From Oscillospiraceae bacterium (GTDB lineage Bacteria; Bacillota; Clostridia; Oscillospirales; Oscillospiraceae): DNA of 36,482 nt. Within the stretch, counting starts at the first letter, position 1. Every line of letters starts with the position of its first letter. This document shows positions 1,178 to 18,219 of this stretch, piece after piece. Below the pieces are notes generated by a model. The model searched no databases and was not told where the DNA came from. It saw nothing but the letters and a program-made list of their open reading frames with translations. The translations under genes were made by a program, and so were the position numbers. Location: contig JAFSHY010000125.1 of NCBI GenBank assembly GCA_017440065.1, forward strand, positions 1-36,482, written 5' to 3'.

Positions 1178-1239
1178 AATGAATTTGTAAAACGAATAGA
1201 ACTGATAGATTTGATCATGAATTTCGATTGGAGTATGAT

Positions 1240-2127: not shown

Positions 2128-2143
2128 AGAAAAAACGGAAGAC

Positions 2144-2354
2144 CATTGCTCGTTCCTCATAAGAAAACATAGCCCCTTCGCCGTACCTTTTCCGCCGCTT
2201 CTGTGTTGTTTTTCCTTGCATTACACAAAGTAGTGCTGCGAAAAAACGCCTTGAATCGACGAAAAATACACAGGCGAATGGCTGATATCAGTTACGGGTC
2301 ATAGACATCTGTCTATGACCCGTAATCTATGTTTTCTGATTCGGAACTCGCTTT
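2144..2354. repeat. Left copy of a ~211-bp inverted repeat (IR-L); contains a perfect 32-nt palindrome (2293-2324) and a CTGATATCAG palindrome (2282-2291)
   Basis: The reverse complement of 2144-2354 aligns with 17997-18206 at roughly 92% identity over the full length (checked by eye, base by base). The internal hairpin followed by TATGTTTTCTGATT resembles an intrinsic terminator reading from LysR. Confidence 0.85.
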
Positions 2355-2373
2355 CCGGTCTTCCGTTTATTTG

Positions 2374-5300
2374 TTACCAGCTGAAGGTTTCGGTCCAAAG
2401 CGCAATGACGCCGAGGAAATTTCTGGGCTGCAGGTAATTCATACCGCCGTAGCCGTAGCCTGCCGCCTCGACCTTGCCGTCTTCACGGACGCCGAAGGAC
2501 GTGTACGCACCGGCATGGATCGATTCGATATTTCTCCACGCGGATACACCGCACTGCCCCTTGCCGTTCTGACCGGCGGCATAGACCGTGCCGTCTTCCC
2601 GCAGCGCCAGCAGATGGTTGTCGCTGCCCTGAAGATCCACCACATCCTCCCAAAAACCGGTCTGCGTGGCCACGGAGGAGTTCATTCCGGCAAACACCGT
2701 GGTGCCGTCATGCCGCAAGCCCACGGAGTATTCACCCACATAGATCTGAACCAGATCGGAATGATCCCATTCATCGATACCGGAAAGCTGATTATTGCCA
2801 TTGGTGCCGGTGCAATGAATCGATCCGTCCTCGCAGATCATGGCAAGTGCGCCGTAGTCACCGCAGATCTCCTTCACCTGCCAGCCTCCCACACGGGAGC
2901 CGGAATAGGATTCCAGCCACGGATGAATGCCCTCCCAGCCTTCGATCTGTGTGGCCCGCATAGCGCCGTCATCCAGCACCACAAGCGTTCCGCTGCCGGT
3001 GGCATGATCGATGGCACGGATCATTTTTACATCGCGGAATCCGGAAACATCACAGGCGGGATTCGTATACTCCGATGCCGCAACCACCGTGCCGTCCTCA
3101 CAAAGTCCCACGAGATGCAGACGGGATGCGCTGATCTGCACGATGCCTTCCCAGCTTTCCACTTCCGCTTCCATGGATTCCGGCCCGGCAAACGCCACCG
3201 TACCGTCCTCCCGTAAGCCCGCGGAGAAACTTGTTCCGCAATCGGCAGCCACGATATCCTTCCAATCGCTGACATTGCACTGTCCGTTATCATTGAGGCC
3301 GTTTGCCACGGCAGTACCGTTTTCACGGATACCGACCACATGGTAATCGCCGGGAGCCACAAACGCGATTTTCTTCCAGCCTTCGGCATAGGTATTGTTA
3401 GTGACAAAGGTGACGCCGATCACCAATGCAGCAGCCATCACCGCCGTAAAGATCAGGTGGAGGAAGCCACTGCCGGGACTTTTCAGATTACGGGTATAGG
3501 AGAAGCCTTCACTGTTCCGAACAGTCAATGCGGGGATCTTAAGATCATTTCTGCCGTACTTGGCGGCAATGGAACGGGCACGTTCCTCATAATTCTGCGC
3601 GATGCGCTGATTGACATCGTATACATGCTCCGCCGCCTTATTGCAGACTCTCACCTTGCCCGCATTGCGGGATACGGAAGCCATGGCAAGGAATCGAAGC
3701 ACAAGCCAGAGAACGGCGGCAACCGCAATGGCGATCAGAAACACCTTCTGCGTGTGCTTTCCATAGACGATAAACACACCGACGCAAAGTCCGCCGCCCA
3801 GCAAAACGCCCAGCAGATTCTGTTCAAAGCTCTTCAGCGTTGTGAAAAGATTGAAGGCGGTCAAGGCAACGCCGCCGATGAACATCCATTTGGCCAGCTG
3901 ATAGAGCAGACCTTCGTAGTCATGGGACTGCACATAGCTTCGCACCAGCGTCATCTGCGCCACCAGAAGAAGCAGCATACCGAAGAACGAAAGCCACGAT
4001 GCGCGCTTGAGGTCATACATCGAGAAATCGAAATCTTCGATTGCGAGATTATACTCGTTTTCCGCCACAGACTGTTCCGTGAATAACGGTTCCGTCGCGG
4101 TATCTCTGCACTCGTACGCTTCCTTGAGACTCTTCGTTTGCCGCACGGCCTGATAGGCGGCGCGATAGCGGTCGATCTCGCGAAGTCGGGAATCTTCCTT
4201 CGGCAAATACAGATAGACACTCTGAATGGCCGCTTCCACCGACTCTACATACGCAACAGAATGGTTGGTCAGATTGGAGGTCAGCTTGCAGAGCCAATCC
4301 CAAACCTTTTCCCGCATCAGACGGGACATTGCCGCACGGTACTGTTCTCTGCGGGATTCCTGCGAAAACTGCAGCGCGTGCTGGTAATTCTGATCCAGCT
4401 CTTCGGAAATGACAGGTTCTGTCAGTTCTTTCGTCTGCGCACGGACAAGACCCCAATGCGCCTCCGCTTCTTCCGCGTTTCGCGTAAGCACATCGGCATA
4501 AATTGCAGCAGCCTGCTCGAACTGCCTCTGCTGCATCAGCTGCTCTGCCTTGCGGAGCAGCTCAAGGATCTCCTTGGTCAGCGAAACGCTCTGGTGGGTG
4601 CGGCCGAACATCTCATTGATCTTCGCAAGCACCGTATCATCAAAGCCCGCGCCTTCATAAGGAATAGACTGCAGCGGCTGCAGTTCCAAAGGCAGCTGCT
4701 CGGGCGTCATGCCGCGAAACACCGAAAGCATCTTTCTGCCCGCATCCTGACGGCGATAAGCAAGGAAGCGCTTCCAAACCGCTCTGTAACGCGGCTGTTC
4801 CGTACGGGTAGCAGACGTTGCAATGACGATCATGGCGGAAGACTTTTCCGCGATGGCCATCTCATAGAGGTTCTTATCCGCTTCCGGCTGCTGCGCCAGC
4901 ATGGTACAGGGCAAAAACACCCGATAGCCCGCGTCATGCAGCACCTTACCCACCTGATTGGCCAGCAGATAATCTGCCGTTCCGGGCTGCTCCACGCAGT
5001 TGATGTAAATATCGAAGGCGCCCATTCTGCGGGAGATCTCAAGCATTTTCCGCTGTTGGGCTTCGATCTCACGGGAAAGGCCTTCATAATAGTATCTGGC
5101 TTCGCGCGGGCAGTAGTCGATCATCTTCCCGTAGCTGGGATCGGAGGTAAAGAGATCCGTTTCCATGCGGTGGAAGATGATATTCTGATAGGTTTCCGCT
5201 GCTTCGGAGATCTCCACGCCGAATTTACTGAGCAGATAGCCCCAATGGGCTGCCGTTTCCTTGGCATCGACCTTCAGAATTCTGCTGTAGTAAGTCAGCG

Positions 5301-5472
5301 CGATATCAAAGCTGCGGTTCGCCAGCGCTTCCGCGGCCAGATGATAGATATTCTGCTTATTGGCAAACTGATTGGGTACCACGAACAGATTGCCGCAAAC
5401 GGGACATTTTACGATCTGCCCGTCCTGTGCCACAGGGATCTGCTTACCGCAGCAGCTGCACTGAAAATTCAT
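2374..5472 (-). CDS. Large membrane protein C: N-terminal zinc ribbon, TPR-like helical module, TIR-like domain, 5 TM helices, C-terminal RCC1-like beta-propeller repeats
   Basis: 1032 aa; ATG at 5472 with a GGGAGG RBS. CxxC..x17..CxxC at the N-terminus, then the AAHWGYLLSKFGVE motif shared with its two paralogs. Residues ~150-235 are TIR-like (FDIYINC...). Five hydrophobic helices lie at ~490-690. The C-terminal ~330 aa show repeated G..REDGTV..G.N..GQC..S.W units typical of RCC1 blades. Confidence 0.8.
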   Translation of the reverse strand: MNFQCSCCGKQIPVAQDGQIVKCPVCGNLFVVPNQFANKQNIYHLAAEALANRSFDIALTYYSRILKVDAKETAAHWGYLLSKFGVEISEAAETYQNIIFHRMETDLFTSDPSYGKMIDYCPREARYYYEGLSREIEAQQRKMLEISRRMGAFDIYINCVEQPGTADYLLANQVGKVLHDAGYRVFLPCTMLAQQPEADKNLYEMAIAEKSSAMIVIATSATRTEQPRYRAVWKRFLAYRRQDAGRKMLSVFRGMTPEQLPLELQPLQSIPYEGAGFDDTVLAKINEMFGRTHQSVSLTKEILELLRKAEQLMQQRQFEQAAAIYADVLTRNAEEAEAHWGLVRAQTKELTEPVISEELDQNYQHALQFSQESRREQYRAAMSRLMREKVWDWLCKLTSNLTNHSVAYVESVEAAIQSVYLYLPKEDSRLREIDRYRAAYQAVRQTKSLKEAYECRDTATEPLFTEQSVAENEYNLAIEDFDFSMYDLKRASWLSFFGMLLLLVAQMTLVRSYVQSHDYEGLLYQLAKWMFIGGVALTAFNLFTTLKSFEQNLLGVLLGGGLCVGVFIVYGKHTQKVFLIAIAVAAVLWLVLRFLAMASVSRNAGKVRVCNKAAEHVYDVNQRIAQNYEERARSIAAKYGRNDLKIPALTVRNSEGFSYTRNLKSPGSGFLHLIFTAVMAAALVIGVTFVTNNTYAEGWKKIAFVAPGDYHVVGIRENGTAVANGLNDNGQCNVSDWKDIVAADCGTSFSAGLREDGTVAFAGPESMEAEVESWEGIVQISASRLHLVGLCEDGTVVAASEYTNPACDVSGFRDVKMIRAIDHATGSGTLVVLDDGAMRATQIEGWEGIHPWLESYSGSRVGGWQVKEICGDYGALAMICEDGSIHCTGTNGNNQLSGIDEWDHSDLVQIYVGEYSVGLRHDGTTVFAGMNSSVATQTGFWEDVVDLQGSDNHLLALREDGTVYAAGQNGKGQCGVSAWRNIESIHAGAYTSFGVREDGKVEAAGYGYGGMNYLQPRNFLGVIALWTETFSW

Positions 5473-5490
5473 ATGCGTTTCCTCCCTTAA

Positions 5491-8136
5491 TCAGCGGCAG
5501 ATGCCAATGTTATCCAGGCCGTTAATGGCTTTGCGCATGGCGATCTCCTTTTCTTCCATGCCGTTCAGACCGTAGCCGCTGCGGTCCGGCATGATTCGGA
5601 CATCCATGATATCGCAAAGCTCCAGCAGGAACGTATTATCGAACGCGACCTTATCGGTGATGGGCCAGCCCGTAGAGAAGACCTTACCAGAGGTGGTCAG
5701 AACGGCCACATCCTCACTGTCGGTCACGACCGCGAGAACAGACCCGCAGGGAAGATCTGTACCCGGCTCGATCATGCCGTTCGTGGCATGCCAGCCGATC
5801 ACGGACATGCTGCTTTCCCTGTTCACGATATAAAGGCGGACAGAGAAATCGGGAGAATCCCAGTATCTGGCGGTAATGCCGATGTAAGCGGCATCGGTTC
5901 GGTCAATCACAAGAGCCTGCATTTCGGGATGAGAACAGTAGACCGTGCCGTCCTTACGCACCGCAGCGACATAATCGGCATAGATATCAAACTGCAGCAC
6001 ATTCTGCGCCAGTTCTCCGTTGACGGCGCAAAGCAGCGTGCCGTCCTCCCGAAGACCTACGGCTTTGGAATCCGTGACCTGAATGGAGCGCATCTCCGTC
6101 CAGCCGGAAATATCACCCACGGAAGCTACATCACCGACGAGGTAAGCCGTGCCGTCCGCACGGACAAAGCCGCCGGAATTGCCGGAATCGGAAAGCGATA
6201 CCGAGCGGTAGCCGCCATCTTCAATGGGCAGATGATCGCAGCCGTATTTGATCAGCGCACCGGTTTCCGCGGTGATACCGATCAGAGAGCCGTTGTCGCT
6301 GCAGGTCACAAGCCCCTGACTCTGATAAATACGCCATACATCCAGATAAGCAGGTTCAGAAATGCCGAAACCGCGCAGCGCGTCATAAGCATCGCGGTAC
6401 CTGCCCTGCTCATAGAAGTCGATGCCTTCCTGCAGCCAGCGATCCAGATAATCCTGTGCTTCAGGGAAATGCTCCGTCAGATCCAGCATCGTTCCGACGG
6501 CACCTGCACGGGTATCCAGACTTTCACCGTTAAACTGCGCACCGTAAAACAGCTTCTGCAGATTTTCCGATTCGCAGACGGAAAGCATATAGGCACTGTC
6601 CTGATAATCGCCAAGATCCTCAAAGATCTCCATGGCTTCATAGTACTGGCCGCCTTCATAGTAGGACATAGCCGTTTTGTACTGTCTGCGCTGCTCACCG
6701 TGCACCTTATCATACTGATAATAAACAATGCCTCCGACCGCCAGCGCAATGACCAGCAGAATGGAAAGGACGATGGCGCGGTCTTTCGCCTTGCGCTTTT
6801 TCTTGAGAAGCGCCTGATGCTTACGCTCCACTTCCTGTTTGGCAAGTTCTCTTGCGCGTTCCTCTTCCGCGATTCGGCGCTCTTCTTCTTCTTCCTGCGC
6901 CAGTCTTCTCTGATAGGTCTGTTCCGCTGCGGCGGCAACATTCTGAATGGTCTGACGTTCCCGTTCGTTGGCAAAAGCCACGGCAGAACGGTAATTACCG
7001 TCCTCACGGATGAGAACGCCTTTTTCCACCAGCTCATTCTCGTTGCTGCAGCCGTTGGCAGCCAGCAGAAGTCCCCAATAAGCCTGACTCTCGCGGGCGT
7101 TGTAGCTCAGCACCTGCTCAAAGGTTTCCTTGGCGGTACGGAAGCTTCGGTTATCCAGCGCAAGACGGCCCTGACGGATCAGGTTGGTATACTCATAGTT
7201 ATTATGGCTGCCGCTCTCGGTATGTAGGGCATCGGCAAAGTCGGTTTCCCCACCGCGGACAAGATTGCAAAGCGCAGGAAGGAACTCTCGGTTTTCCATG
7301 GAAACGCGGTGATCCGCTCCGTCAAAGATCGAATCGGGGATATCCTCGTATTCATCCAGCGCAGCGTAAGCCACGATCAGACGACGGATCGAACCGGACG
7401 CAGAACGGACATCCTTCGCCTTGAGAGAAAGGAAACGTTCGGCATCGAACAGCTCATCCTCGGGAAACGCCTGTTTACCGACGGCAATATAGACCATAAC
7501 AGATGCGGTATTCATGCCGTGGAACAGCACAGGCTCCCATGCCTGCCGCTGCTCCTGATGCAGCTCCATGGCGGGACAAAGGCAGCGGAGGCCCGCGGCG
7601 GTCAGCGCCGATTTAATGGCGGCAGCACGCTCCATGGATGCGCGGCTGCGAACGTCGGAAACGATCAGAACATCGTAGGGAGCGGTAACAGAAGCGAAGG
7701 AAGAAACCTGCTTTTGCAGCTGCGCGATCTTTCTGGTTTCCTCCATATAGATCCCGCGTTCTTCCTCGGTGCCCAGTTCAAAGGCCTTCCGCACATCGGG
7801 ATCTGCCGCAAAGCTCTGCAGCATGGCCTGATGACAGACAAGACGGTATTCTCCGCCGCCGATGGGCTGATATTCCACCTCATAACGGCTGATGGCACGA
7901 CCCCACCACGCGGCAGAGTTTTCGGGATGCTGCTTGAGAATATTGGTATAAGTAGAAAGCGCGCTGGAAAAATCGCGGCGCATACATGCCTGCTGCGCAT
8001 ACAGGAAGCTGCTTTCCAGAGCGGTATACCCTCTCGGGACAGGAACCGCATTGCCGCAGCGGTCGCAAAGGGCGATCCTTTGGTTTTCCGTTACGGTAAC
8101 AGTTCCGCCGCACTGAGAACAATAGATACGAAGCAT
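5491..8136 (-). CDS. Large membrane protein B: zinc ribbon, TPR-like, TIR-like, coiled coil, single TM, extracellular TPR and beta-propeller repeats
   Basis: 881 aa; ATG at 8136, 1 nt after the stop of the upstream gene, with its RBS GGGGAG inside the last codons of that gene (translational coupling). [11 protein letters not shown] zinc ribbon, AAWWGRAISRYEVEY motif, YDVLIVSD.. TIR-like segment, a Glu/Arg-rich coiled coil, TM helix AIVLSILLVIALAVGGIVYY, then repeat-rich C-terminus (..GLREDGTLL..). Confidence 0.8.
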   Translation of the reverse strand: MLRIYCSQCGGTVTVTENQRIALCDRCGNAVPVPRGYTALESSFLYAQQACMRRDFSSALSTYTNILKQHPENSAAWWGRAISRYEVEYQPIGGGEYRLVCHQAMLQSFAADPDVRKAFELGTEEERGIYMEETRKIAQLQKQVSSFASVTAPYDVLIVSDVRSRASMERAAAIKSALTAAGLRCLCPAMELHQEQRQAWEPVLFHGMNTASVMVYIAVGKQAFPEDELFDAERFLSLKAKDVRSASGSIRRLIVAYAALDEYEDIPDSIFDGADHRVSMENREFLPALCNLVRGGETDFADALHTESGSHNNYEYTNLIRQGRLALDNRSFRTAKETFEQVLSYNARESQAYWGLLLAANGCSNENELVEKGVLIREDGNYRSAVAFANERERQTIQNVAAAAEQTYQRRLAQEEEEERRIAEEERARELAKQEVERKHQALLKKKRKAKDRAIVLSILLVIALAVGGIVYYQYDKVHGEQRRQYKTAMSYYEGGQYYEAMEIFEDLGDYQDSAYMLSVCESENLQKLFYGAQFNGESLDTRAGAVGTMLDLTEHFPEAQDYLDRWLQEGIDFYEQGRYRDAYDALRGFGISEPAYLDVWRIYQSQGLVTCSDNGSLIGITAETGALIKYGCDHLPIEDGGYRSVSLSDSGNSGGFVRADGTAYLVGDVASVGDISGWTEMRSIQVTDSKAVGLREDGTLLCAVNGELAQNVLQFDIYADYVAAVRKDGTVYCSHPEMQALVIDRTDAAYIGITARYWDSPDFSVRLYIVNRESSMSVIGWHATNGMIEPGTDLPCGSVLAVVTDSEDVAVLTTSGKVFSTGWPITDKVAFDNTFLLELCDIMDVRIMPDRSGYGLNGMEEKEIAMRKAINGLDNIGICR

Positions 8137-8137
8137 A

Positions 8138-10189
8138 TTACTTCTCCCCTGCCTTTCTGTCCGCGATCACAGTCAGCCGATCCCGCAGCTTCGCCAGACT
8201 GCCTTCACACATGGCCTTGAGATCCGCGGCAAAGCGATTCTGCAGATCCTGCCAGTATGCGGCAGAATAATACTGACGGTAGGGTTCGGTCACACGGCGA
8301 AGCTGCAGCAGCGTTTCGGACTGAAGTGCGGCATCCAAAGACGCCAGCGAAGCCAGCACTTCCGCTGCCTGCTTACGGCATTTTGCCGCGCGAACCTTGG
8401 CAGGCTTTCTCCGAAGATCCACAAAGATATAGAACAGCGCATATGCAACGACCGCGATCAGAAGGAAGGTCAGCTTCGGCTTCATGGACTGCATAGCCTG
8501 AATGATGAGCATGCTGGAGACGTAACCCACGGCCACGCGGATGAGCAGTGCAAAGAAGCCCTCTTCCAGGAACGGGATCTCCTTCAGCATGATAAAGCAG
8601 CAGACCAGATAACAGATCACCATGGAGAGGGTACCGGGCATGGCGATCCAGTCAATGGTGGTATCGATCCCCGCCATTTCACCCAATTCGGAAGCAACCA
8701 TGGATACTGCGGGAAATACATTGCCGAGAAGAAGGAAGATGCGGAAGATTTTGGTAAAGGAAGACTGCTTCTTCAGCTTGGAAACCGTTACCTCCGCCCT
8801 CTCCGTAAAGTTGAGGGCTGCTGCACATTTCTGATGGGCAGGTGTTTGCAGGGAAAACTTCTCCACAGTCTTCATGGCATTCACCGCGTCGGCGCAGCAT
8901 TTTTCATGCTCTTCCGCGCACTTCAATCGCCATTTTCTGTTCTCCTCGCAGGTCGCCGCGATCTTATACAGCTCTTCCTGCTTCTGTTCGGAGGCGCAGG
9001 CCAGCGCTTTTTTGAACATGGGCTGACGGGCAATGGGATCGGCATACTGATGAAGCGCTTCCGGGCCGGGGATCTTCATCGCGCACATCATAAGACCAAG
9101 GTACGCATCGGGAGATTCCTGCAGTTCCAGAGACTGACGGAACATGGATTCCGCCACGTCAAAATTGCCGTTGACCAGTTCCACGGTGCCGCGGGTAAAA
9201 TAATTGTCCGCGGAGGTTTCCATACGGATGGCACCGGTTCCCTTGCCGCGCACCTGACGCTGCAAATCAGAAACCTCGTCTCTGTTCTCGCCCGAAAAAT
9301 GGGCAGAGATCATGCCGAAGAGAACCTGCTTGGGATCATCCGCCGCAGAAAGATCGCAGTACTGCGGCTGCTCTCTCAGCACGGCAGGAATGGCATCATG
9401 GCTCAGATTGTAGAACACGGGGATCAGCAGACGTCCGCTGCCCGGTTCTGTGCGCAGCAGCTGTGCGTAGCGGCTCCATTCGTTCTTCACCCAGACAGCA
9501 TTGTAATATTCCTGTCTGGAACCGATGGCCAGCATGACCCTGGCGCTTTGCAGGGCAGCAAAGATTCTGGGTTCATACTCTTCACCGACACCGAGGGTCT
9601 CTTCCGCGAAGAACACCTTATAACCGCGGCGGATCAGCTCACGGTAAAGATCCGCGGCAATTCTCGCGTCCGAGGTACGCTTCTCGCCTTCCTCCGTCTT
9701 CTTATAGCAGATAAAGACGTCATACGGATCTTCCTTGCCGGAGATCTGCAGGCTGCGGGACTGGATCAGATCGATCTGTGCGCTCTTTTCGCGATAGAAC
9801 TTCTCCGATTCATAGTCGGGCGCATAGTCGATGGCCTGCTTGACATAGTGGAATTTGCTGAACTGCTCACGGGAAAGACGGTGAAGTGTGGGGATCTGCT
9901 CCGCGGTATCGGGATCCTGCACGAATTCAATACCGTATTCGCTGACGGCATAGCCCCAGCAGGCAGCCGCCTCCTGCGGAGCGCGGATCAGAATATCTCG
10001 AAATGCCTCACGGGCTTCTTCAAACCGACGTTCGCTTAACAGTTCATTGGCATAGGAATAGGCCTGCATGATGCTCCTGTCCTCTTTGGGCACAGGAACT
10101 TCCGCAAAACAGCGGGTACAAATACCGATATGCGGATTTTCACCGATGACGACATCGGATCCGCAATTATAACATTTCAAATTGCTCAT
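8138..10189 (-). CDS. Membrane protein A: zinc ribbon, TPR-like, canonical TIR domain, 4 C-terminal TM helices
   Basis: 684 aa from the ATG at 10189 (AGGAAA RBS); the track ORF extends to 10243 without an RBS. CYNCGS..x15..CTRC zinc ribbon, AACWGYAVSEYGIEF motif. TIR: YDVFICYKK..x..GYKVFFAEETL..IFAALQSARVMLAIGSRQEYYNAVWVKNEWSRY..LIPVFYN (DVFISY-like, S..Y..S.W..E-like and iiPVfY-like motifs). Four hydrophobic helices at ~500-620. Confidence 0.8.
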   Translation of the reverse strand: MSNLKCYNCGSDVVIGENPHIGICTRCFAEVPVPKEDRSIMQAYSYANELLSERRFEEAREAFRDILIRAPQEAAACWGYAVSEYGIEFVQDPDTAEQIPTLHRLSREQFSKFHYVKQAIDYAPDYESEKFYREKSAQIDLIQSRSLQISGKEDPYDVFICYKKTEEGEKRTSDARIAADLYRELIRRGYKVFFAEETLGVGEEYEPRIFAALQSARVMLAIGSRQEYYNAVWVKNEWSRYAQLLRTEPGSGRLLIPVFYNLSHDAIPAVLREQPQYCDLSAADDPKQVLFGMISAHFSGENRDEVSDLQRQVRGKGTGAIRMETSADNYFTRGTVELVNGNFDVAESMFRQSLELQESPDAYLGLMMCAMKIPGPEALHQYADPIARQPMFKKALACASEQKQEELYKIAATCEENRKWRLKCAEEHEKCCADAVNAMKTVEKFSLQTPAHQKCAAALNFTERAEVTVSKLKKQSSFTKIFRIFLLLGNVFPAVSMVASELGEMAGIDTTIDWIAMPGTLSMVICYLVCCFIMLKEIPFLEEGFFALLIRVAVGYVSSMLIIQAMQSMKPKLTFLLIAVVAYALFYIFVDLRRKPAKVRAAKCRKQAAEVLASLASLDAALQSETLLQLRRVTEPYRQYYSAAYWQDLQNRFAADLKAMCEGSLAKLRDRLTVIADRKAGEK

Positions 10190-10211
10190 CTCTCTATTTC
10201 CTTTACAAGCC

Positions 10212-10907
10212 TCAGCCGACCTTACAGGCGCGGTTGCGGGCATTCAGCAGATTACGGATCACGGGGATCATACCGCGGGCAGCCTTTTCGTCATGGGCAG
10301 CAAGGGCCGCCTGCAGGGATGCGACCTTACCGCGAAGATCGGAATCGTATCCGGCCACTTTCCCCTTAACATCGGGAAGAGAAAGGCGGAATACTTCCGC
10401 CAGGGCGCGAAGCTCCGATGCAAAATCGGGATCTTCAGCAGAATCCGCCAGCGAGAGCAGCACATTGCGCATCACAGTCAGCTCCGAAGCGGCAGCGGCA
10501 TCCTTCCGGTGCAGCTGCTCAGCAGCCTTCGAGGAGGAAAGCGCCAGCACGATCACCACCGCCGCAGCGGCAAATACGATCAGCTCGATCAGCACGATCC
10601 ACTTAATGCCCTCCGCGGGAACGGCAGCAGCAATCATGCCCAGCACCATCGCGATCACGGCATAAGCACCGCCCGCAAAGACCGCGGGAGCCTTATAAAC
10701 CTGATCGTAGGCATTGAGCAGCACAGGCGCTTTGAACCAGATGATGCAGCCCGTAACGGCAAAGGCAAGAACGGTAAAGATAAAACCAATCCAGAGAGAG
10801 GCGGAAGCCGCCTCAAAAATGACAAACAGAGCCACACAATAGATCACGAAAAACAGGCCGAGAAAAGCCAAGGGCGCAATGCGGTTCAGCTTCTTTTCCA
10901 TACTCAT
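10212..10907 (-). CDS. Hypothetical 4-TM membrane protein with cytoplasmic alpha-helical C-terminal tail
   Basis: 231 aa with four clear hydrophobic segments and an Ala/Leu-rich C-terminal ~100 aa. Start overlaps the stop of the upstream SPFH gene by 4 nt and the gene lies 22 nt upstream of protein A, in an operon context. No recognisable family from sequence alone. Confidence 0.6.
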   Translation of the reverse strand: MSMEKKLNRIAPLAFLGLFFVIYCVALFVIFEAASASLWIGFIFTVLAFAVTGCIIWFKAPVLLNAYDQVYKAPAVFAGGAYAVIAMVLGMIAAAVPAEGIKWIVLIELIVFAAAAVVIVLALSSSKAAEQLHRKDAAAASELTVMRNVLLSLADSAEDPDFASELRALAEVFRLSLPDVKGKVAGYDSDLRGKVASLQAALAAHDEKAARGMIPVIRNLLNARNRACKVG

Positions 10908-12247
10908 CTGCCTCCCTTGGGTTCACCGCACTTGGGGCAGAACAGAACATCGGATGCATTGGTATGACCCTTGGAGCAGGTCCAGGGCAGATTGCTCGGC
11001 TTGGGCTGACCGCACTTGGGGCAGAACAGGCAGTCATCCGTATTAACATGACCGTTGGCGCAGGTCCAGCCTGCGGAAGCTGCGGGCTTGGGCTGACCGC
11101 ACTTGCTGCAGAACAGGCTGTCCGCCGCGTTCTGATGGCCGGAAGCGCAGACCCAACCGCCTGCTGCGGCGGAAGCAAAGGAAGCGCTGTTCTGATTGGC
11201 AACATTCATGGCATCGGTCATCATGCCGGACATCTCCTTGGCCATCTGAAGGCCGACGCCGACGCGCATCATATCACTCATCATGCCCGTCATATCACCG
11301 CCCATGGGAACGGCAGGAGAACCGCTGCCGCCGCTGTTCTTGATCATGGTGTTGATGGTATCGAACTGATGCTCCTGAATGGAGGTAATGCCCTCCAGAT
11401 CACGGCGGCGTTTTTCACTCTGAGCGCGGATATAATCCGACTGCGCCTGATAGGTCGTTTCCTTTACGGCCTTTTGCCCCTGAACATCCGCGAGCGTATT
11501 TTCAAATACGGCCTGCTCATATTCAATATCGTGCTGACCGCCGGCAAGAATGCGCTTATCGTAATTCCGTTTGGCAGACTGGTAGGTAGGATCTTCCTCC
11601 GGCATAATGAAGGTATCCAGATAGAAATCCCGCAGGATCAGACCAAACTTGGAGAATTCGGGACGAAGCCGCTGCAGCAGCACATGGTTGATGGTCTCCG
11701 TATGCTGATCCAGCAGGAAGGCCAGCGCCTTCAGTTCGCGCAGGGCATTGGAAAGATAGGGCTTGATCACGGAATTGAGCATACTGTTGAAGGTATCCTG
11801 AATAGCCTTCTGAGAAAGCTCGGTACCGGTACCCAGCAGGTATTCCAGGAACATCGTGACCTGATCGCGGTCGACCTGCATATTCATCGTACCGGAAGCA
11901 CCGATGGGCAGCGCCATCGCTCTGCCGCCGCCGACACCCAGCTCCACACGAACCTTCTGATTCAGCCACCAGGGCATGGCCATATGATAGCTGTGATTGA
12001 TAAAGTAGACCTGCGCCTGGAAATAACGGCCGTATCTGAGCTTGGTAAAGAAGCGCAGGAAGGGATAATTGGACGTTTCCAGAATATGCATACCGGGCCC
12101 GAGGATCTCAACGATTCTGCCGTCCCGAATAAAGACAGCCTGCTGCGAAGGATGTACCACAAGCTGAGCGCCGAATTCAAAATCCTCCCGCTCACACTTC
12201 CATGCAAGCAGTTCTTTCCTGCCGGGATCTACGATCATTGTTTTCAT
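10904..12247 (-). CDS. SPFH/band-7 (COG4260, B. subtilis YdjI-like) protein with three C-terminal zinc-ribbon repeats
   Basis: 447 aa from the ATG at 12247 (AGGAGGG RBS 5 nt upstream); the track ORF starts 30 codons earlier without an RBS. N-terminus MKTMIVDPGRKELLAWKCEREDFEFGAQLVVHPSQQAVFIRDGRIVEILGPGMHILETSNYPF is typical of the COG4260 SPFH group. The C-terminus carries 3 repeats of W.C..GH.N..D.LFC.KCGQPKP. Confidence 0.8.
   Translation of the reverse strand: MKTMIVDPGRKELLAWKCEREDFEFGAQLVVHPSQQAVFIRDGRIVEILGPGMHILETSNYPFLRFFTKLRYGRYFQAQVYFINHSYHMAMPWWLNQKVRVELGVGGGRAMALPIGASGTMNMQVDRDQVTMFLEYLLGTGTELSQKAIQDTFNSMLNSVIKPYLSNALRELKALAFLLDQHTETINHVLLQRLRPEFSKFGLILRDFYLDTFIMPEEDPTYQSAKRNYDKRILAGGQHDIEYEQAVFENTLADVQGQKAVKETTYQAQSDYIRAQSEKRRRDLEGITSIQEHQFDTINTMIKNSGGSGSPAVPMGGDMTGMMSDMMRVGVGLQMAKEMSGMMTDAMNVANQNSASFASAAAGGWVCASGHQNAADSLFCSKCGQPKPAASAGWTCANGHVNTDDCLFCPKCGQPKPSNLPWTCSKGHTNASDVLFCPKCGEPKGGR
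10916..11175 (-). repeat. In-frame tandem coding repeat, 3 copies, period 84-87 nt (zinc-ribbon units of the SPFH protein)
   Basis: ccgcacttggggcagaacag recurs at about 10926, 11010 and 11097, with similar flanking sequence each time. At protein level this is three 28-29 aa CxxC-type ribbon units. Confidence 0.8.
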
Positions 12248-12327
12248 AATAGCCCTCCTAATATCATTTGCAATGCCGCCTCTCAAAAGCAGCAGGATAT
12301 GTTTTGCAGGTATACAAATACGAATAT

Positions 12328-12356
12328 AACATAACACGGAACGATTCTTTTTTCAA
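12328..12356 (-). promoter_or_regulatory. Putative sigma-A promoter for the SPFH/TIR operon (TTGAAA-17-TATGTT with upstream TG)
   Basis: On the minus strand: TTGAAA aaagaatcgttccgtgt TATGTT, about 80 nt upstream of the SPFH start in the divergent intergenic region. The match is moderate. Confidence 0.25.
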
Positions 12357-12480
12357 GTAAAGAATGGAAGATCGACCGTTCATCTCTCCGTTTCCATATT
12401 ATTGTTCGAGAAGGATTTGAAATCACAGAATTGTTATGCTACCATGATAAATGAAAACAGTCATAAGGAAGGATCTATTT

Positions 12481-14103
12481 ATGGAACAATATTTGAAACA
12501 CGATACTGTCGTATATCAGATCTATCCCCGTTCTTTCCTGGATACCAACGGCGACGGCATCGGTGACCTTCGGGGCATCATTCAAAAGCTGGATTATCTG
12601 CAGGATCTGGGGATCAACACCATCTGGCTCTCCCCTGTTTACAAAAGCCCCAACGATGACAACGGCTATGACATCGCCGACTATAAAGCCATCCAGCCGG
12701 AATTCGGCACCATGGAGGATTTTGAAGAGCTGATCGCCGAAGCAAAAGCCCGCGGGATCGGAATCATCATGGATCTTGTCATCAACCACACCTCCGATGA
12801 ACACGAATGGTTTCAGAGAGCACTGGCAGGAGAAGAAAAATACCGCGACTATTACATCATCCGTCCCGGCAAAAACGGGAAAGTGCCCAACAACTGGGGC
12901 AATTTCTTCGCAGACTGTCCGTGGGCGCCGTTCGGCGATACCGGCGAATACTATCTCCATCTTTTCTCCAAAAAGCAGCCGGATCTCAACTGGCGCAATC
13001 CTGCTGTCCTCGAAGAGGTCAAGGATATCATGCGCTTCTGGCTGGAAAAAGGTGTGCAGGGCTTCCGCTGCGATGTGATCAATATCATTTGGAAGACCTC
13101 TCTGGAGGACGGAAAGAAGCAGTTCGCACTGACGGGACAGGAGCATTATCTCTCCCAGCCCGGCTGCCATGAGATCCTCCGCAGGCTGAACGAGGAAGTC
13201 ATCAAACCCTATGGCGCGTGGACCGTCGGTGAAACGGTCTTCGTAGACATCCCCAAGGCAAAAGACCTCTGTTCTCCGGAACGGAAAGAACTGGACATGG
13301 TCTTCTCCTTTGAGCATATGGAATGCGATCAGGTGGGGCTTAAATGGTTCAAGACCCGACTTTCCCTCAAAAAGCTGATGTCCACTCTGACCCGCTGGCA
13401 AAAAGGACTGGGCTGGAATGCCAACTATTTTGAAAACCACGATCAGCCCCGTTTTATCTCCCGCTTCTCCGATTCACAGAACTACCGGAAAGAAGCCTCC
13501 AAGCTGATGGCAGGCCTTCTGATGACGCTTCGCGGCACGCCCTTCCTCTATGAAGGACAGGAGATCGGTATGACCAACGGCGATTTCGCGGATCTCAGCG
13601 AGATCATGGACATCGAAAGCCACAACGTGTGGGCGATGGCGAAAAGCCTCGGCATTCCCGCGCCGATGCGATGGCAGATGATCAAGCGAACCTCCCGCGA
13701 CAATGCAAGGACACCGATGCAGTGGACGTCGGAGGCAAACGCGGGCTTTACGGGCGGAACGCCCTGGCTGAAGGTAAACGGCAATCATACGTCTGTTAAT
13801 GTGGAATCGGATCTGGCCGATCCCGACGGTGTGCATGCGTTCTGGAAGCAGATGATCGCCCTTCGTAAGAGTTCTGACGTTCTTTGCGAGGGACATTTCC
13901 GCTCGGTTCTGGAAAGCGGTTCCGTTTACGCATTTGAACGGATTTTGGGCATGAGACGGATGCTTACCGTCTGCAACCTTTCCGCCAAAGAGATTCCGAT
14001 GCCGGCGCAGCTGAAGGGGTGGAAAAACAGGGTGATCTCCAACTACGATGATTCGAAGGCCGGAATGCTCCGCCCTTTCGAATTCCGTCTGATGCAGCCT
14101 TAA
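12481..14103 (+). CDS. GH13 alpha-glucosidase / oligo-1,6-glucosidase family glycoside hydrolase
   Basis: 540 aa. VYQIYPRSF.DTNGDGIGDL.GI..KLDYL..LGI..IWL.P...SP..D.GYD, DLVINHTSDEH, GFRCDVINI and the EGQEIGMTN catalytic regions are characteristic. The ATG at 12481 has AAGGAAGG 8 nt upstream; the track start 12451 lacks an RBS. Confidence 0.9.
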   Translation: MEQYLKHDTVVYQIYPRSFLDTNGDGIGDLRGIIQKLDYLQDLGINTIWLSPVYKSPNDDNGYDIADYKAIQPEFGTMEDFEELIAEAKARGIGIIMDLVINHTSDEHEWFQRALAGEEKYRDYYIIRPGKNGKVPNNWGNFFADCPWAPFGDTGEYYLHLFSKKQPDLNWRNPAVLEEVKDIMRFWLEKGVQGFRCDVINIIWKTSLEDGKKQFALTGQEHYLSQPGCHEILRRLNEEVIKPYGAWTVGETVFVDIPKAKDLCSPERKELDMVFSFEHMECDQVGLKWFKTRLSLKKLMSTLTRWQKGLGWNANYFENHDQPRFISRFSDSQNYRKEASKLMAGLLMTLRGTPFLYEGQEIGMTNGDFADLSEIMDIESHNVWAMAKSLGIPAPMRWQMIKRTSRDNARTPMQWTSEANAGFTGGTPWLKVNGNHTSVNVESDLADPDGVHAFWKQMIALRKSSDVLCEGHFRSVLESGSVYAFERILGMRRMLTVCNLSAKEIPMPAQLKGWKNRVISNYDDSKAGMLRPFEFRLMQP

Positions 14104-14136
14104 CGGAATCCTGTGTACAAAAGAAAGGAATCGCCC

Positions 14137-15585
14137 ATGGATAAGCAAATCAAACGAAACAAATACTGCTTTGGCCTCGGAACCGTCGGACGTGACGCGG
14201 TCTATACGCTGATCAGCATGTACTTTATTACCCACCTTACCGAGGTTGTGGGCCTCTCGGATGCGCATCTGGCGATCATCGGAGGTCTGATGGTGGTGTT
14301 CCGCGTATTTGACGCGCTGAACGATCCCGTCATGGGTACCATCGTGGACAACACCAAGACCCGCTGGGGCAAGTTTAAGCCGTGGATCATCTTCGGTTCC
14401 GTCACCGCCGGCATTCTTTCCATCCTTCTTTTCAGTGATCTCGGTTTGTCGGACGGCTGGTATGTGGCCGTATTTTCGATCCTGTATCTGCTTTGGGGCA
14501 TGGCCTATACCACGAATGACATCTCCTACTGGTCGCTGATGCCTGCCATTTCCAAGGATCAGAAGGTACGCGAAGGCGTCGGCGCCATTGCCAGGATCTG
14601 CGCCAATGTGGGCATGTTTGCCGTGGTCGTGCTGTATACCATGGTTCCCGATCTGTTCGGCATGGCACCGAAGCAGGCCTACCAGCTCTTTGCCGTGATC
14701 CTTGTGGTGCTGATGTGGTTCTTCCAGGCATTCACGGTACTGGGCGTACGGGAAGACAGAAGCGAACTGAAGAATCAGGAGCATACCTCTCTTGGCGGTA
14801 TGGTAAAAGCCCTTGTGAAAAACGATCAGCTCATGGTCACCGCCATTGCCATGGCGCTGTTCATGATCGGCTACTGCACCACCACATCCTTTGGTGTCTA
14901 CTATTTCAAGTATGCCTACAAGAATGAAGGCACCTATATGATCTTTGCCGCGGTACTGGGTGTGGCGCAGCTGACGGCTCTTTCCGTATTCCCCCTGTTC
15001 AGCAAGCGCTTTACGAGAAAGCAGCTCTATACCGGCTCCATGATCACCGTTTGCGTGGCCTACATCATCTTTTTCTTCTCCTTTGAAAAGCTGGCGCTGA
15101 TCGTGATCGCGGGTCTTGCCCTGTTTTTCGCGCAGGCATTCATTCAGCTTTTGATGCTTCTCTTCCTTGCGGATGCCGTAGAATACGGTGAATGGAAGCT
15201 TGGTAAACGGAATGAATCCGTCAGCTTTGCCGTTCAGCCCTTTATCAATAAGCTGGGCGGTGCCGTCGGTACCGGTATTGTGACCTTGACGCTGATCATC
15301 TCCGGGATCAATCGGGTCTCCAATCAGACCGCGGTCATCGAAGAACAGATCGCGGGAATGACCGACGCAGCTTCCATCGCTGCCGCACAGGCCGAGATCA
15401 CTTCCCTCATTTCCAATGTGCAGGGTTCTCCCATCTGGATCATGAAGATCGCTATGATGCTGCTTCCCCTTGCCTGTATCGTGACAGGATTTGTCATCTA
15501 TTACAAGAAATTCCGTATCGATGAAACGATGTACAAAACGATCGTTTCCGACCTTGCAAATAGAAATAAGGAAACCGAAAGCTGA
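14137..15585 (+). CDS. GPH-family (MelB-like glycoside-pentoside-hexuronide:cation symporter) MFS sugar transporter
   Basis: 482 aa, about 12 TM helices. The N-terminal DKQIKRNKYCFGLGTVGRDAVYTLISMYF..TE..GLS and the RWGKFKPWI signature are typical of GPH symporters. AAAGGA RBS; sits 30 nt downstream of the glucosidase. Confidence 0.85.
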   Translation: MDKQIKRNKYCFGLGTVGRDAVYTLISMYFITHLTEVVGLSDAHLAIIGGLMVVFRVFDALNDPVMGTIVDNTKTRWGKFKPWIIFGSVTAGILSILLFSDLGLSDGWYVAVFSILYLLWGMAYTTNDISYWSLMPAISKDQKVREGVGAIARICANVGMFAVVVLYTMVPDLFGMAPKQAYQLFAVILVVLMWFFQAFTVLGVREDRSELKNQEHTSLGGMVKALVKNDQLMVTAIAMALFMIGYCTTTSFGVYYFKYAYKNEGTYMIFAAVLGVAQLTALSVFPLFSKRFTRKQLYTGSMITVCVAYIIFFFSFEKLALIVIAGLALFFAQAFIQLLMLLFLADAVEYGEWKLGKRNESVSFAVQPFINKLGGAVGTGIVTLTLIISGINRVSNQTAVIEEQIAGMTDAASIAAAQAEITSLISNVQGSPIWIMKIAMMLLPLACIVTGFVIYYKKFRIDETMYKTIVSDLANRNKETES

Positions 15586-15587
15586 AG

Positions 15588-15616
15588 AAAGCACCCCATA
15601 TGGGGTGCTTTTTTAT
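15588..15616 (+). terminator. Rho-independent terminator after the GPH transporter
   Basis: GCACCCCATATGGGGTGC hairpin (9-bp stem) followed by TTTTTTATT. Confidence 0.7.
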
Positions 15617-15656
15617 TCCGAACCTGTTTTAAATATCGACTGCACTTCGCTGATAA

Positions 15657-15920
15657 AATGGCGGAGTGCCGGGGAGGCAGGCTACAATTGGGGATCACCG
15701 GTATCTGAGCGAGGATGCTCCTTATTCCATGGTCTGCCTTTCCTCCCTTTCGCGGGCATTGGGATTGAAAACACCGCTGATGGATTCCATTGCCTATCTG
15801 GGCGGCGCTTTGATGCAGACCGATTACTGGGCAAACGGCAGAACGGTGAAAGACCTCGGCATGGAAAACTTGACACTTGATGAAATGAAAGACCTTTTGG
15901 AAAACGGCTATCCCGAATAA
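15657..15920 (+). pseudogene. 3' remnant (about 85 codons) of an opine-dehydrogenase-family gene
   Basis: The frame opens immediately after tandem TGA TAA stops. It encodes ..GDHRYLSEDAPYSMVCLSSLSRALGLKTPLMDSIAYLGGALMQTDYWANGRTVKDLGMENLTLDEMKDLLENGYPE, which parallels the C-terminal domain of the gene at 1-1111 ([32 protein letters not shown]). No N-terminal Rossmann part is present anywhere upstream. Confidence 0.55.
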
Positions 15921-15928
15921 GGAACAAA

Positions 15929-15962
15929 GCCTCCGTATCGTTATCTGATACGGAGGCTTTTC
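15929..15962. terminator. Bidirectional hairpin terminator between convergent genes
   Basis: GCCTCCGTATC-gttatct-GATACGGAGGC, a perfect 11-bp stem. TTTTCC follows on the plus strand, and on the minus strand it sits directly after the hydrolase stop. Confidence 0.6.
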
Positions 15963-15964
15963 CA

Positions 15965-17475
15965 TTAGAGTTTCAAAATACTGCGGATACCGAAGGCAAC
16001 GCCGTTTTCTTCATTGGAACGTGTAACAAAATCTGCCGCTTCTTTGCAGCGTTCTGTGGCATTTGCAACGGCGATTCCCGTACCGACGAAGCGCAGCATT
16101 TCCGCATCGTTATCTCCGTCACCAAAGGCAGCCACCGCCTTCGGAGAGATACTCAGCATCTGAAGCAGCCAGGATAGTCCGGCGTGCTTGCCGCAATCCC
16201 GGTGCGAGATCTCCAGCAGGTATTCAATGGATGTTGTGGTATAGATGTCCGATACCTTGGCGCGAAGGATCTTTTCGATCCGATCCCGTTCTTCCATGCT
16301 TCCCGCCGCAAGATCCAGCGCATCGATTTCCTGCCGGTGGTCGAAAATAAAGGAGCGGATATCGGCAACAGGCTCTCTTGTGGAACGGATATAAGGAATG
16401 CTGGAAGGCGGCGCTCCAAACCGCACAGGATCGCGCACAAACGCTTCGGATGCATATCCTTTTCCGTCCACAAAGACTTCGTAGGCCACATTCAGCGATT
16501 CGGTCAGGGTAAGGATCTCAGCCACCGACTCTGCGGTCATCACCGTCCTGTGAATACAGCGTTCGGAAGGAACATGATACACGGCAGCGCCGTTGGAGGT
16601 TATGGCATATTCGATCCCGGGCAGTTCCGTAATTTTCTGAGGCAGAGAAGCGAATGCCCGTCCGCTGGCTACCACAACATGGATCCCTTTCTCGATGGCG
16701 CTTTGAATTGCTTCCAGTGTTTCTTCGGAGATCCCTTTGGAGGGCGAAAGTGTGGTTCTGTCCAGATCCAGTGCGATACAGCGGATGTGGGACTCATATT
16801 CTTCCTTCAAAAACGCTTCAGCCGCATGATTGAAGGCTTCCGGATTCCGATTCGCGACAAAATGATCTCCTTCGATCCGTACCCACTTACCCAGCGGCAC
16901 AGAATCTGCGATCATCGCAGAGTGATCATCACGGATCATATCCTTCGTACCTGTGATCACCAGCACAGGCATGCAAAGCGACGAAAGGCGGGACGGATCG
17001 ATATGAGGCTCCTTTACCATCAGCCCAAGCAGTTCCGCGTTCTTCCTCGCGCCGTCACTGCGCTTTGCGAACAGGGACGCGATCCGATACCCCAAAACAA
17101 TAGGAAGCTGCACAGAAGCTTTGACACCGGAAGGATCAAGATTCGCGCCGTTCAGAATCAGCCGATTCACCCGTTCGGGATGCCGCAGCGCAAAGGTCAG
17201 CGCGATGTTGCCGCCATCGGAGAATCCGAGAATATGCGCCGAATCCAGAGAAAGCTCATTCATCAGCTGAAGCAGATCATCCGCAAAACGGGAAATGGAA
17301 AATTCCCCTTCACCGCGCGGTGACTTTCCGTGACCTCGGGTATCCACCGCGATCACGCGGTAGGAGCGGGAAAAATGCGCGATCTGATGACAGAAATAGG
17401 AACTGTCTTCTCCATTGCCGTGCAGCAGGATCAGTGGTTCGCCGCATCCTTGATCGGTATAATAAAGAGGAATCA
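15965..17475 (-). CDS. Bifunctional-looking fusion: N-terminal alpha/beta-hydrolase fold plus C-terminal Cof-type HAD-IIB phosphatase
   Basis: 503 aa from the ATG at 17475 (GGAGGG RBS); the track ORF extends upstream into the tRNA terminator. The N-terminal half has LILLHGNG..GFSDGG (nucleophile elbow G-x-S-x-G). The C-terminal half has IALDLDRTTL, ..SGR.., FGDGDNDAEML and GIAVANA, the classic Cof/HAD motifs I-IV. Confidence 0.8.
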
Positions 17476-17490
17476 TATGCTCCCTCCAAT

Positions 17491-17529
17491 CAATAAAAAT
17501 AGCTCCCGGAGCGCAATGCATCCGGGAGC
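17491..17529 (-). terminator. Intrinsic terminator immediately 3' of tRNA-Thr
   Basis: Minus-strand AGCTCCCGGA-tgcattgcgc-TCCGGGAGCT followed by ATTTTTATT. The hydrolase RBS and ATG follow directly. Confidence 0.55.
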
Positions 17530-17531
17530 TT

Positions 17532-17607
17532 TGGAGCTGGTAATGTGACTCGAACACACGACCTGCTGATTACGAATCAGCTGCTCTACCGACTGAGCTA
17601 TACCAGC
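17532..17607 (-). tRNA. tRNA-Thr (anticodon CGU)
   Basis: Reverse complement GCTGGTATAGCTCAGTCGGTAGAGCAGCTGATTCGTAATCAGCAGGTCGTGTGTTCGAGTCACATTACCAGCTCCA folds as a cloverleaf: 7-bp acceptor stem, D arm GCTC/GAGC, anticodon stem GCTGA/TCAGC with loop TTCGTAA, T arm GTGTG-TTCGAGT-CACAT, and an encoded CCA. Confidence 0.85.
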
Positions 17608-17619
17608 ATATGACCGAAA

Positions 17620-17990
17620 CAACAAGGCATTCCGTTTCTGTCCGAACTATAATAGCACAAAAGGAACCGTTCGTCAACCCAAAAACGATTCATCGCGCAA
17701 TGATTCCGAACAAAAGCCAATCGGCTTATCCTTTGACATTCCATGATATTCCAAACAATTATTAATAGAATTAATTAACAATTCGTGATCAAATTTGCTT
17801 TCACAGGGTAAGCTATTCACATTTTGCACAGACTTTTCCACAGAGATTCTTAGGGATTCCTCATAATTCACGATGAATTTCATATATTTTTAACATTTAT
17901 CGATTCATCGGACATAACCGATGCGCATATTTTGATTTACATAATATTATCCATTCTACAGGTTTTTAAACATCGGAGCGGAAAAAACAG
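17620..17990. other. AT-rich (~35% GC) non-coding patch inside the accessory segment
   Basis: Composition is sharply lower than the ~58-60% GC background. It holds only a 69-aa ORF with no RBS and contains the tRNA promoter. Confidence 0.6.
17649..17677 (-). promoter_or_regulatory. Near-consensus sigma-A promoter for tRNA-Thr (TTGACG-17-TATTAT, with TG at -15)
   Basis: On the minus strand: TTGACG aacggttccttttgtgc TATTAT, about 35 nt upstream of the mature tRNA 5' end. Confidence 0.5.
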
Positions 17991-17996
17991 GGTGCA

Positions 17997-18206
17997 AAAG
18001 CGAGTTCCGAATCAGAAAACATAGATCAGGGGTCATAGACAGATGTCCATGACCCCTGACTGATATCAGCCATTCGTCTGTGATTTTTTCGACGATTCAA
18101 GGCGTTTTTTTGCAGCACTACTTTGTGTCATGCAAGAAAAAACAACACAGAAGCGGTGGAAAAGGCACGGCGAAGGGGCTATGTTTTCTTATGATGAACG
18201 AGCAAA
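17997..18206. repeat. Right copy of the ~211-bp inverted repeat (IR-R); near-palindrome 18027-18058 plus CTGATATCAG at 18060-18069
   Basis: See IR-L. In this orientation the hairpin plus T-rich tract read as a terminator for minus-strand tsaD (stop at 18220). Confidence 0.85.
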
Positions 18207-18219
18207 TGCACCCTGTTTT

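Follow-up and report, generated by a model that had tools for sequence, protein, structure and literature searches.

A small MITE-like palindromic element lies in intrinsic terminator loops of gut Oscillospiraceae

Results

An inverted pair of palindromic elements downstream of LysR and tsaD

We analysed a stretch of 36,482 nucleotides from an Oscillospiraceae bacterium (assembly GCA_017440065.1, contig JAFSHY010000125.1), hereafter the window, in which two inverted copies of a ~209-nt non-coding element, IR-L and IR-R, bracket about 15.6 kb of DNA between a LysR gene and tsaD. Our gene map agreed with that of a preliminary description of the window. LysR (1228-2127, plus strand) is convergent with the RCC1/TPR gene (2374-5472, minus strand), which belongs to a minus-strand operon (2374-12337) for RCC1/TPR, TPR and TIR-TPR proteins, a 231-aa protein and an SPFH/zinc-ribbon protein. 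There follow an alpha-amylase-family gene and an MFS sugar transporter gene (12451-15585, plus), a hydrolase/HAD gene (minus, within 15692-17981), tRNA-Thr(CGT) (17532-17607, minus), an AT-rich patch between the tRNA gene and IR-R (17608-17981), tsaD (18220-19236, minus) and then core genes (polA, cysS, recA, dnaE and others).

A repeat search of the window returned a single long inverted pair, with arms of 225 nt at 2130-2354 and 17997-18221 that are 90% complementary, and no other inverted pair longer than 43 nt. The element proper is somewhat shorter: IR-L (2146..2354, minus strand, taking the better-folding strand as its own) matched the reverse complement of IR-R (17997..18206, plus strand, hence in the opposite orientation) at 194 of 210 positions (92.4% identity). 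The two differ by 15 substitutions and one indel, and their longest identical run is 30 nt. The preliminary description had given ~211 bp, ~92% identity and 15-20 mismatches, figures that our alignment bears out, and had placed the repeats after the LysR and tsaD stop codons, in agreement with the coordinates of the open reading frames (ORFs). The IR-L arm starts 3 nt past the LysR stop and ends 20 nt short of the 3' end of the RCC1/TPR gene, and IR-R abuts the tsaD stop. The preliminary description had missed that each arm is itself palindromic, and that the 12-15 nt beyond each arm differ between the copies yet are self-complementary within a copy.

The element is a unit whose ends are 27-nt terminal inverted repeats, imperfect and built around a palindromic core (AGAAAACATAG, 154 nt, CTATGTTTTCT), and its interior holds a 15-bp GC-rich hairpin and a long rod. 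In IR-L, which matched the family profile with an E value of 1e-56, the terminal inverted repeats occupy 2146-2172 and 2327-2353, the rod ~2173-2285 and the hairpin 2292-2325. Folding z-scores of the whole unit against shuffled sequence ranged from -9 to -13.

The element sits in the loops of intrinsic terminators

Identity between the copies stops sharply at the element ends, and the flanks of IR-L and IR-R are wholly different. Within a copy, however, the two flanks pair with each other. At IR-L, an A-run and stem arm at 2130..2144 (AAAACGGAAGACC) shows perfect 12-nt pairing with the stem arm and T-run at 2357-2368 (GGTCTTCCGTTT); these are the left and right halves of a bidirectional terminator, now split, that serves both LysR and the RCC1 operon. 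At IR-R, the flanks at 17982..17996 (AAAAAACAGGGTGCA on the plus strand) and 18207..18221 (TGCACCCTGTTTTTT on the plus strand) are a 15-nt perfect complement and form the distal and proximal halves of a split tsaD terminator, the T-run of the proximal half overlapping the tsaD stop codon by 2 nt.

Flank pairing of this kind (A-run, GC stem, then stem, T-run) was present in all 16 copies of the element that we collected, 14 of them from beyond the window. The perfect left-right complementary run measured 6-16 nt and reached at least 10 nt in 12 of the 16 copies, whereas among 240 mismatched flank pairs it averaged 5.0 and did not exceed 10. When the element was removed in silico, a junction-spanning hairpin resulted in every one of the 16 cases, usually with both an A-run and a T-run. 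Given that the flanks pair in all 16 copies, each copy lies in the loop of a bidirectional intrinsic terminator.

Comparison with relatives showed the same hairpins with and without the element. IR-R was unchanged or nearly so in four same-species contigs whose TsaD is identical to that of the window (L024-27), and was also present in L084, a 99%-identical strain of this species. In a sister taxon (L031/L032; TsaD 96% identical, 84% nucleotide identity across the core), the tsaD site instead carries an intact hairpin, GAAGACAGGGTGC-GAACTT-GCACCCTGTCTTC, with the same stem and no element, and the more distant relatives L034, L035 and L037 likewise have a plain hairpin after tsaD. IR-L was identical in two same-species contigs (L028 and L029). 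In L082, which encodes an RCC1 protein of 98% identity, the RCC1 site is instead AAACGGAAGACC-GCAA-GGTCT, where the contig stops, with the same arms, a 4-nt loop and no element; the window sequence runs into the element at the point where L082 reads its loop and ends. Beyond this relative, the nearest homologues of the RCC1 protein are ~52% identical, too distant for a comparison of terminators. As intact hairpins exist in relatives, the hairpins pre-exist the element; each insertion was an event of its own, and close relatives are polymorphic for at least IR-L.

These comparisons show that insertion took place at the apex, that is, in the loop, of pre-existing Rho-independent terminator hairpins whose stems are mutually unrelated. 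IR-R split the ancestral tsaD terminator, and IR-L split the terminator of LysR and the RCC1 operon. The element ends would pair and stack on the target stem, so that the terminator hairpin would be lengthened rather than destroyed, with its outer stem and T-runs kept. Termination is likely preserved, because a T-rich tail, drawn from the core CTATGTTTTCT, follows the internal hairpin on both strands. A terminator loop might then offer a near-neutral safe haven at low cost to the host.

Strong terminator-like intergenic hairpins of 13-14 pairs lie at 15926-15960 and 23716-23744 (minus) without an element, so not every local terminator is filled. The best TsaD match, P0001, has 546 aa compared with the usual 338 aa on a contig of 1721 nt, which may reflect read-through or fusion of the gene call at the 3' end of tsaD in that one assembly.

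A dispersed family in Faecousia and related Oscillospiraceae

Scanning with a pattern built on the end cores of the element, one genome per species, yielded 12 related copies in six metagenome-assembled genomes (MAGs) of Faecousia and other Oscillospiraceae, and the same pattern found two further copies on metagenome contigs, making 14 beyond the window and 16 overall. Five of the MAGs hold 2-3 copies and the sixth holds one, all of them lower bounds; the window holds two. Element length varied little (206-210 nt), and 19-26 of the 27 terminal-repeat positions were complementary across the 16 copies, with 26 of 27 in L010 and L013. In the alignment, similarity ended at the same positions in every copy, and the flanks were unique to each. 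No reading frame was conserved, the longest stop-free stretches varying in strand and frame among the 16 copies. Most copies lie between convergent genes, and high GC content gives long ORFs on both strands.

The preliminary description had offered, as an alternative, that the repeats are two copies of a dispersed family resembling MITEs (miniature transposable elements with inverted repeats). This proposal holds: there are 14 further copies with unique flanks in at least six MAGs and two contigs, and relatives have unoccupied sites. Small size, absent coding capacity, terminal inverted repeats, dispersal among unrelated flanks both within and between genomes, and presence/absence polymorphism with unoccupied sites at tsaD and RCC1 are all features by which MITEs are described, and the element lacks from that description only a proven target duplication and a known parent.

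We therefore regard it as likely that each arm arose by its own insertion of a non-coding element of the MITE kind into a pre-existing terminator loop, the two in opposite orientation, and that this element belongs to a family in Faecousia and related Oscillospiraceae. That two copies flank a 15.6-kb stretch is incidental. Several points weigh against this interpretation. Per-genome copy number is a lower bound, as the pattern required 22 bases to match exactly and the MAGs are fragmented, and the 11-nt core looks invariant in part because of the pattern by which copies were found. A blastn search of the element against plasmid and phage collections gave no match, and no transposase-bearing relative with these terminal repeats was present among the retrieved loci. 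The loops at the unoccupied sites (GAACTT at tsaD; TTGC, on the forward strand of the element, at RCC1) differ from those predicted by removing the element. Finally, the contig L082 stops 9 nt beyond the stem, and its site may have lost a copy by excision rather than never having held one.

A profile (nhmmer) search of the retrieved loci for extra, partial, solo or long autonomous copies returned only the known copies and assembly-truncated ends, and solo or distant end pairs were absent from these loci. Two metagenome contigs from other samples, L027 and L030, stop inside the element at their 3' ends, in keeping with the tendency of repeats to break assemblies. A scan of viral contigs with the end-core pattern gave a single, unrelated AT-rich match. 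The metagenome scan returned 44 loci, only two of which belong to the family; the rest are a Chitinophagales palindromic repeat and AGAAAACATAG satellites. The former is an unrelated palindromic family from a Chitinophagales MAG, with terminal inverted repeats of ~45 nt (...CACATAGGGACATAGAAAACATAG), and was caught by the pattern through a shared 11-mer (L002, L004-L006, L014, L015 and many JGI contigs, for example L038, L044, L047 and L053).

The fold of the element is maintained by compensatory changes

A consensus structure of the 16 copies, drawn on the better-folding strand, has 78 pairs, of which 44 have changed on both sides. Paired cells amounted to 91.9%, compared with 76% after shuffling and 43-49% when partners were slid by 1-3 columns, and none of 500 shuffles attained the covariation score of 0.435 (0.156 for shuffled alignments). 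Between subfamilies, the outermost 16 nt at the ends vary in sequence but keep their complementarity. The same strand folds better in every one of the 16 copies, by 4-22 kcal/mol, a bias that is weakly replicated as the copies represent only about six subfamilies. The compensatory changes keep the fold, and the single strand under selection may be RNA or DNA.

Such conservation raises the question of whether the element is primarily a structured RNA selected by the host, either a 3'-untranslated-region or small-RNA module or a portable bidirectional terminator, with a fold kept for the sake of the RNA's function and with mobility secondary. Strong covariation in every internal helix, the better fold of one strand in 16/16 copies with recurrent G-U pairs on that strand, and the location of every copy in a transcribed 3' region, with a T-rich tail after the internal hairpin on each strand, speak for this. 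However, the window copies face opposite ways relative to their neighbouring genes: the strand that folds better is sense with respect to the upstream operon at IR-L but antisense to tsaD at IR-R, so that it has no consistent relation to transcription. No promoter-like site was seen inside the element, and Rfam 15 covariance models, at gathering thresholds and at E values up to 10, gave no family for it (best E 1.9-8, far below gathering), tRNA-Thr being the only Rfam match to pass in the window. Moreover, the strand bias has only some six subfamilies behind it, and paired arms can also change together in a DNA palindrome that serves no function as RNA. We consider a primary role as host RNA improbable.

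The repeats are not the borders of the acquired block

The preliminary description had taken everything between the repeats as an accessory segment, which RecA might invert as a whole. A blastn comparison of the sister-taxon contig L031 with the window gave matches at 27682-18208 (core genes to the tsaD terminator), 17948-15692 and 2123-3 (LysR and the next gene). The unmatched, lineage-specific block is therefore 2124..15691 and holds IR-L, the minus-strand SPFH/TIR-TPR/TPR/RCC1-TPR operon, the alpha-amylase-family gene and the MFS sugar transporter. At its position, the sister taxon has an octopine-dehydrogenase-like gene and a second LysR gene; relatives keep both, and the block replaces them. 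A 3' remnant of the dehydrogenase-like gene, which is intact in L031 at 11558-12727, persists at 15692-15920 and marks the true right edge of the acquired block.

The DNA from there to IR-R (15692..17981) is ancestral: in L031 it keeps its order, at a nucleotide identity of 73%. This places IR-R 2.3 kb beyond the block and within the tsaD terminator, which is ancestral. The claim that the repeats bracket an accessory segment fails on this point: the remnant, the hydrolase/HAD gene, tRNA-Thr and the AT-rich patch are syntenic with tsaD in relatives, and LysR is not directly beside tsaD there. The AT-rich patch (17608-17981) is partly conserved beside tsaD in relatives rather than foreign, and contains a promoter-like TTGACG-17-TATTAT (with TG) aimed at tRNA-Thr(CGT) that is conserved across relatives. 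Nor did we find support for the suggestion that the repeat marks an insertion hotspot, as the element marks terminators and not island edges.

The reading in which the repeats are functional borders of a single unit of 15.6 kb, which could be a segment inverted by RecA or a composite, transposon-like island acquired whole, has some points in its favour. The repeats are inverted and 92% identical with identical runs of up to 30 nt, which makes homologous recombination physically possible, and most of the intervening DNA (2124-15691) is lineage-specific. In L024, the IR-R copy (4074-4283) carries three clustered substitutions within 52 nt, all in the IR-L state, and is otherwise identical over 861 nt, which hints at gene conversion. 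However, the right edge of the block is at 15691, and the DNA beside IR-R is syntenic with tsaD in element-free relatives; IR-R, starting at 17997, is in ancestral DNA and off the boundary of the acquired block, which is not the arrangement of a composite transposon or island. IR-R entered a pre-existing terminator and IR-L is absent from L082, so the copies were inserted separately. Five junction-spanning contigs from other samples (L024, L025 and L026 on the tsaD side; L028 and L029 on the LysR side) all showed the orientation of the window. Inversion of the segment is thus without evidence in these five contigs; a minor isoform, for which 30-nt identical runs exist, is possible, and a rare one would be beyond the reach of assemblies. 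As to L024, a simple tract of conversion from IR-L to IR-R was rejected, because three unconverted IR-L/IR-R differences interrupt the substitutions and IR-L is not a simple donor; the substitutions may at most hint at patchy gene conversion among family copies. As a single unit, the bordered segment is largely refuted, and we regard it as very improbable.

The 15.6-kb stretch is accordingly not an invertible or mobile island bounded by repeats, and the acquired block has other borders. Elements of this type can mimic island borders, and they break metagenome assemblies, as in the two contigs that end inside a copy.

Junctions and possible modes of insertion

Most junctions have TT(T) on both sides of the element, which would be consistent with a T-rich duplication of 3 bp. 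Such a duplication does not sit well with the L008/L009/L020 subfamily or with either unoccupied site. At L082, the loop TTGC is the same as the four bases with which the left end of the element begins, which would suit either a target-retaining single-strand mechanism or an excision footprint. For independent insertion of a MITE-kind element, mobilisation would be by an enzyme acting in trans, which might recognise hairpin or cruciform geometry or the T-rich loop; a 3-bp T-rich duplication, as made by some DDE transposases, would fit most junctions.

Alternatively, the element may move as single-stranded DNA, by a structure-specific enzyme (of HUH/Y1 type, as for the non-autonomous PATEs derived from IS200/IS605, or of a REP/RAYT-like system), into hairpin loops extruded at replication forks and without target duplication. 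Consistent with this, no target duplication is unambiguous and the residual loop bases vary from copy to copy; the outermost 16 nt vary between subfamilies with complementarity kept, as expected if structure rather than sequence is conserved; one strand folds better in all 16 copies; and the targets share shape, not sequence. The L082 loop looks as if a target tetranucleotide had been retained 5' of the element. A reported enrichment of terminator-like hairpins immediately upstream of IS200/IS605 elements (PMC13548323) points the same way. By contrast, terminal inverted repeats are missing from IS200/IS605 elements and their derivatives but reach 27 nt in this element. An ordinary 3-bp duplication by a DDE transposase also fits the T-rich bases that border most copies on either side, and as the window copies are inverted within one replichore, neither strand is favoured with respect to replication. 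A Y1 transposase gene was not seen, although no search was aimed at one. On balance, we see single-stranded movement as rather unlikely.

A bolder possibility is an element that homes on shape: it would recognise any intrinsic-terminator hairpin, integrate at its apex as a self-folding single strand and make up for what it disrupts with two-way terminator-like hairpins of its own, by way of a structure-specific recombinase or an RNA-mediated route and not an ordinary DDE transposase. We offer this only as a speculative and rather doubtful idea. If it were true, the terminators of Firmicutes-type genomes would form a general class of safe-harbour targets, and the element would be a natural tool for insertion directed by structure.

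Comparison with known systems

Bacterial MITEs such as RUP, BOX, Correia and ERIC (PMC10969869) resemble the element in being ~200 nt long and non-coding, with terminal inverted repeats, unique flanks and long hairpins. They also occur in several copies, are enriched between convergent genes and show presence/absence polymorphism (PMC10969869). Unlike them, every copy of our element that was examined lies in a terminator loop, and its internal helices show extensive compensatory change; in the sequences searched, it also had no clear target-site duplication or parent insertion sequence. A literature search of incomplete coverage found no report of a MITE inside terminator loops.

The IS3-family insertion sequences IS1397 and ISKpn1 insert in a loop and duplicate 3-4 bp, and IS3-type ends have TG...CA tips. 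The T-rich bases beside most copies of the element would fit a 3-bp duplication of a similar kind, whereas its ends have no recognisable TG...CA tips of the IS3 type. IS1397 and ISKpn1 are autonomous, ~1.4 kb long and specific for one conserved sequence of the repetitive extragenic palindrome (REP); the element is non-autonomous, and its target stems, all of them ordinary terminators, are all different. The likeness is in the target, as a report on these insertion sequences (PMC1525189) describes insertion into an extragenic hairpin-forming palindrome, the palindromic unit (REP) of bacterial interspersed mosaic elements (BIMEs).

Shape is also decisive for group IIC introns, which recognise intrinsic terminator stem-loops by their shape and not by sequence. 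These are ~2-kb ribozyme retroelements that insert downstream of the hairpin and not in its loop. The element differs from them in its loop insertion and in having no ribozyme or reverse transcriptase and no Rfam match.

The pneumococcal SPRITE (PMC3049150) is likewise a small interspersed terminator-like repeat near gene 3' ends that is strongly enriched between convergent genes, and neither a transposase nor a duplication is known for it. It differs in having a single long stem with a U-tract and only AAAA/TTTT ends, it is not reported inside pre-existing terminator loops, and it has no sequence similarity to the element. In none of IS1397/ISKpn1, group IIC introns and SPRITE does a non-autonomous element insert into the loops of generic terminators.

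Hairpin-forming intergenic repeats with maintained structure are also known as REPINs of the REP-RAYT system and as palindrome-associated transposable elements (PATEs) derived from IS200/IS605, for which single-strand recognition without target duplication has been proposed (PMC3116915, PMC3333891). Compared with these, the element is larger, has no conserved GTAG-type REP motif and carries long terminal inverted repeats, and no associated Y1 transposase was seen in a survey that did not aim at one. PATEs and other single-strand elements of the IS200/IS605 type are marked by subterminal hairpins, a fixed target of 4-5 nt 5' of the left end and a Y1 transposase in the genome. As regards PATEs in particular, the long terminal inverted repeats argue against membership, whereas the subterminal hairpins, together with the absence of a clear duplication, speak for it.

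The element is thus a small mobile element of a little-studied group of gut bacteria with unusually clean targeting, all 16 copies being in terminator hairpins with unrelated stems. Few precedents exist for targeting by shape, namely insertion sequences in REP palindromes and group IIC introns beside terminators. The mobilising enzyme would reveal how a mobile element picks a near-harmless landing site.

The SPFH/TIR operon within the acquired block

The five-gene operon at 2374-12337, which is absent from the sister taxon, encodes an SPFH protein with zinc ribbons, the 231-aa protein, which has no Pfam match, and TPR-TIR, TPR and TPR-RCC1 proteins. Three tandem direct repeats of 84-87 nt (63-74% identical, 10914-11171) in the SPFH gene encode repeated C-terminal zinc-ribbon modules. 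PADLOC returned for the operon only a weak PDC-S66 match, to the TIR protein. A homologous four-gene version (SPFH, TIR, TPR, RCC1; ~52% identical) without the 231-aa gene is present in L083 at 3850-13090, where it adjoins relaxase and integrase genes. The operon looks like a mobile, defence-type island.

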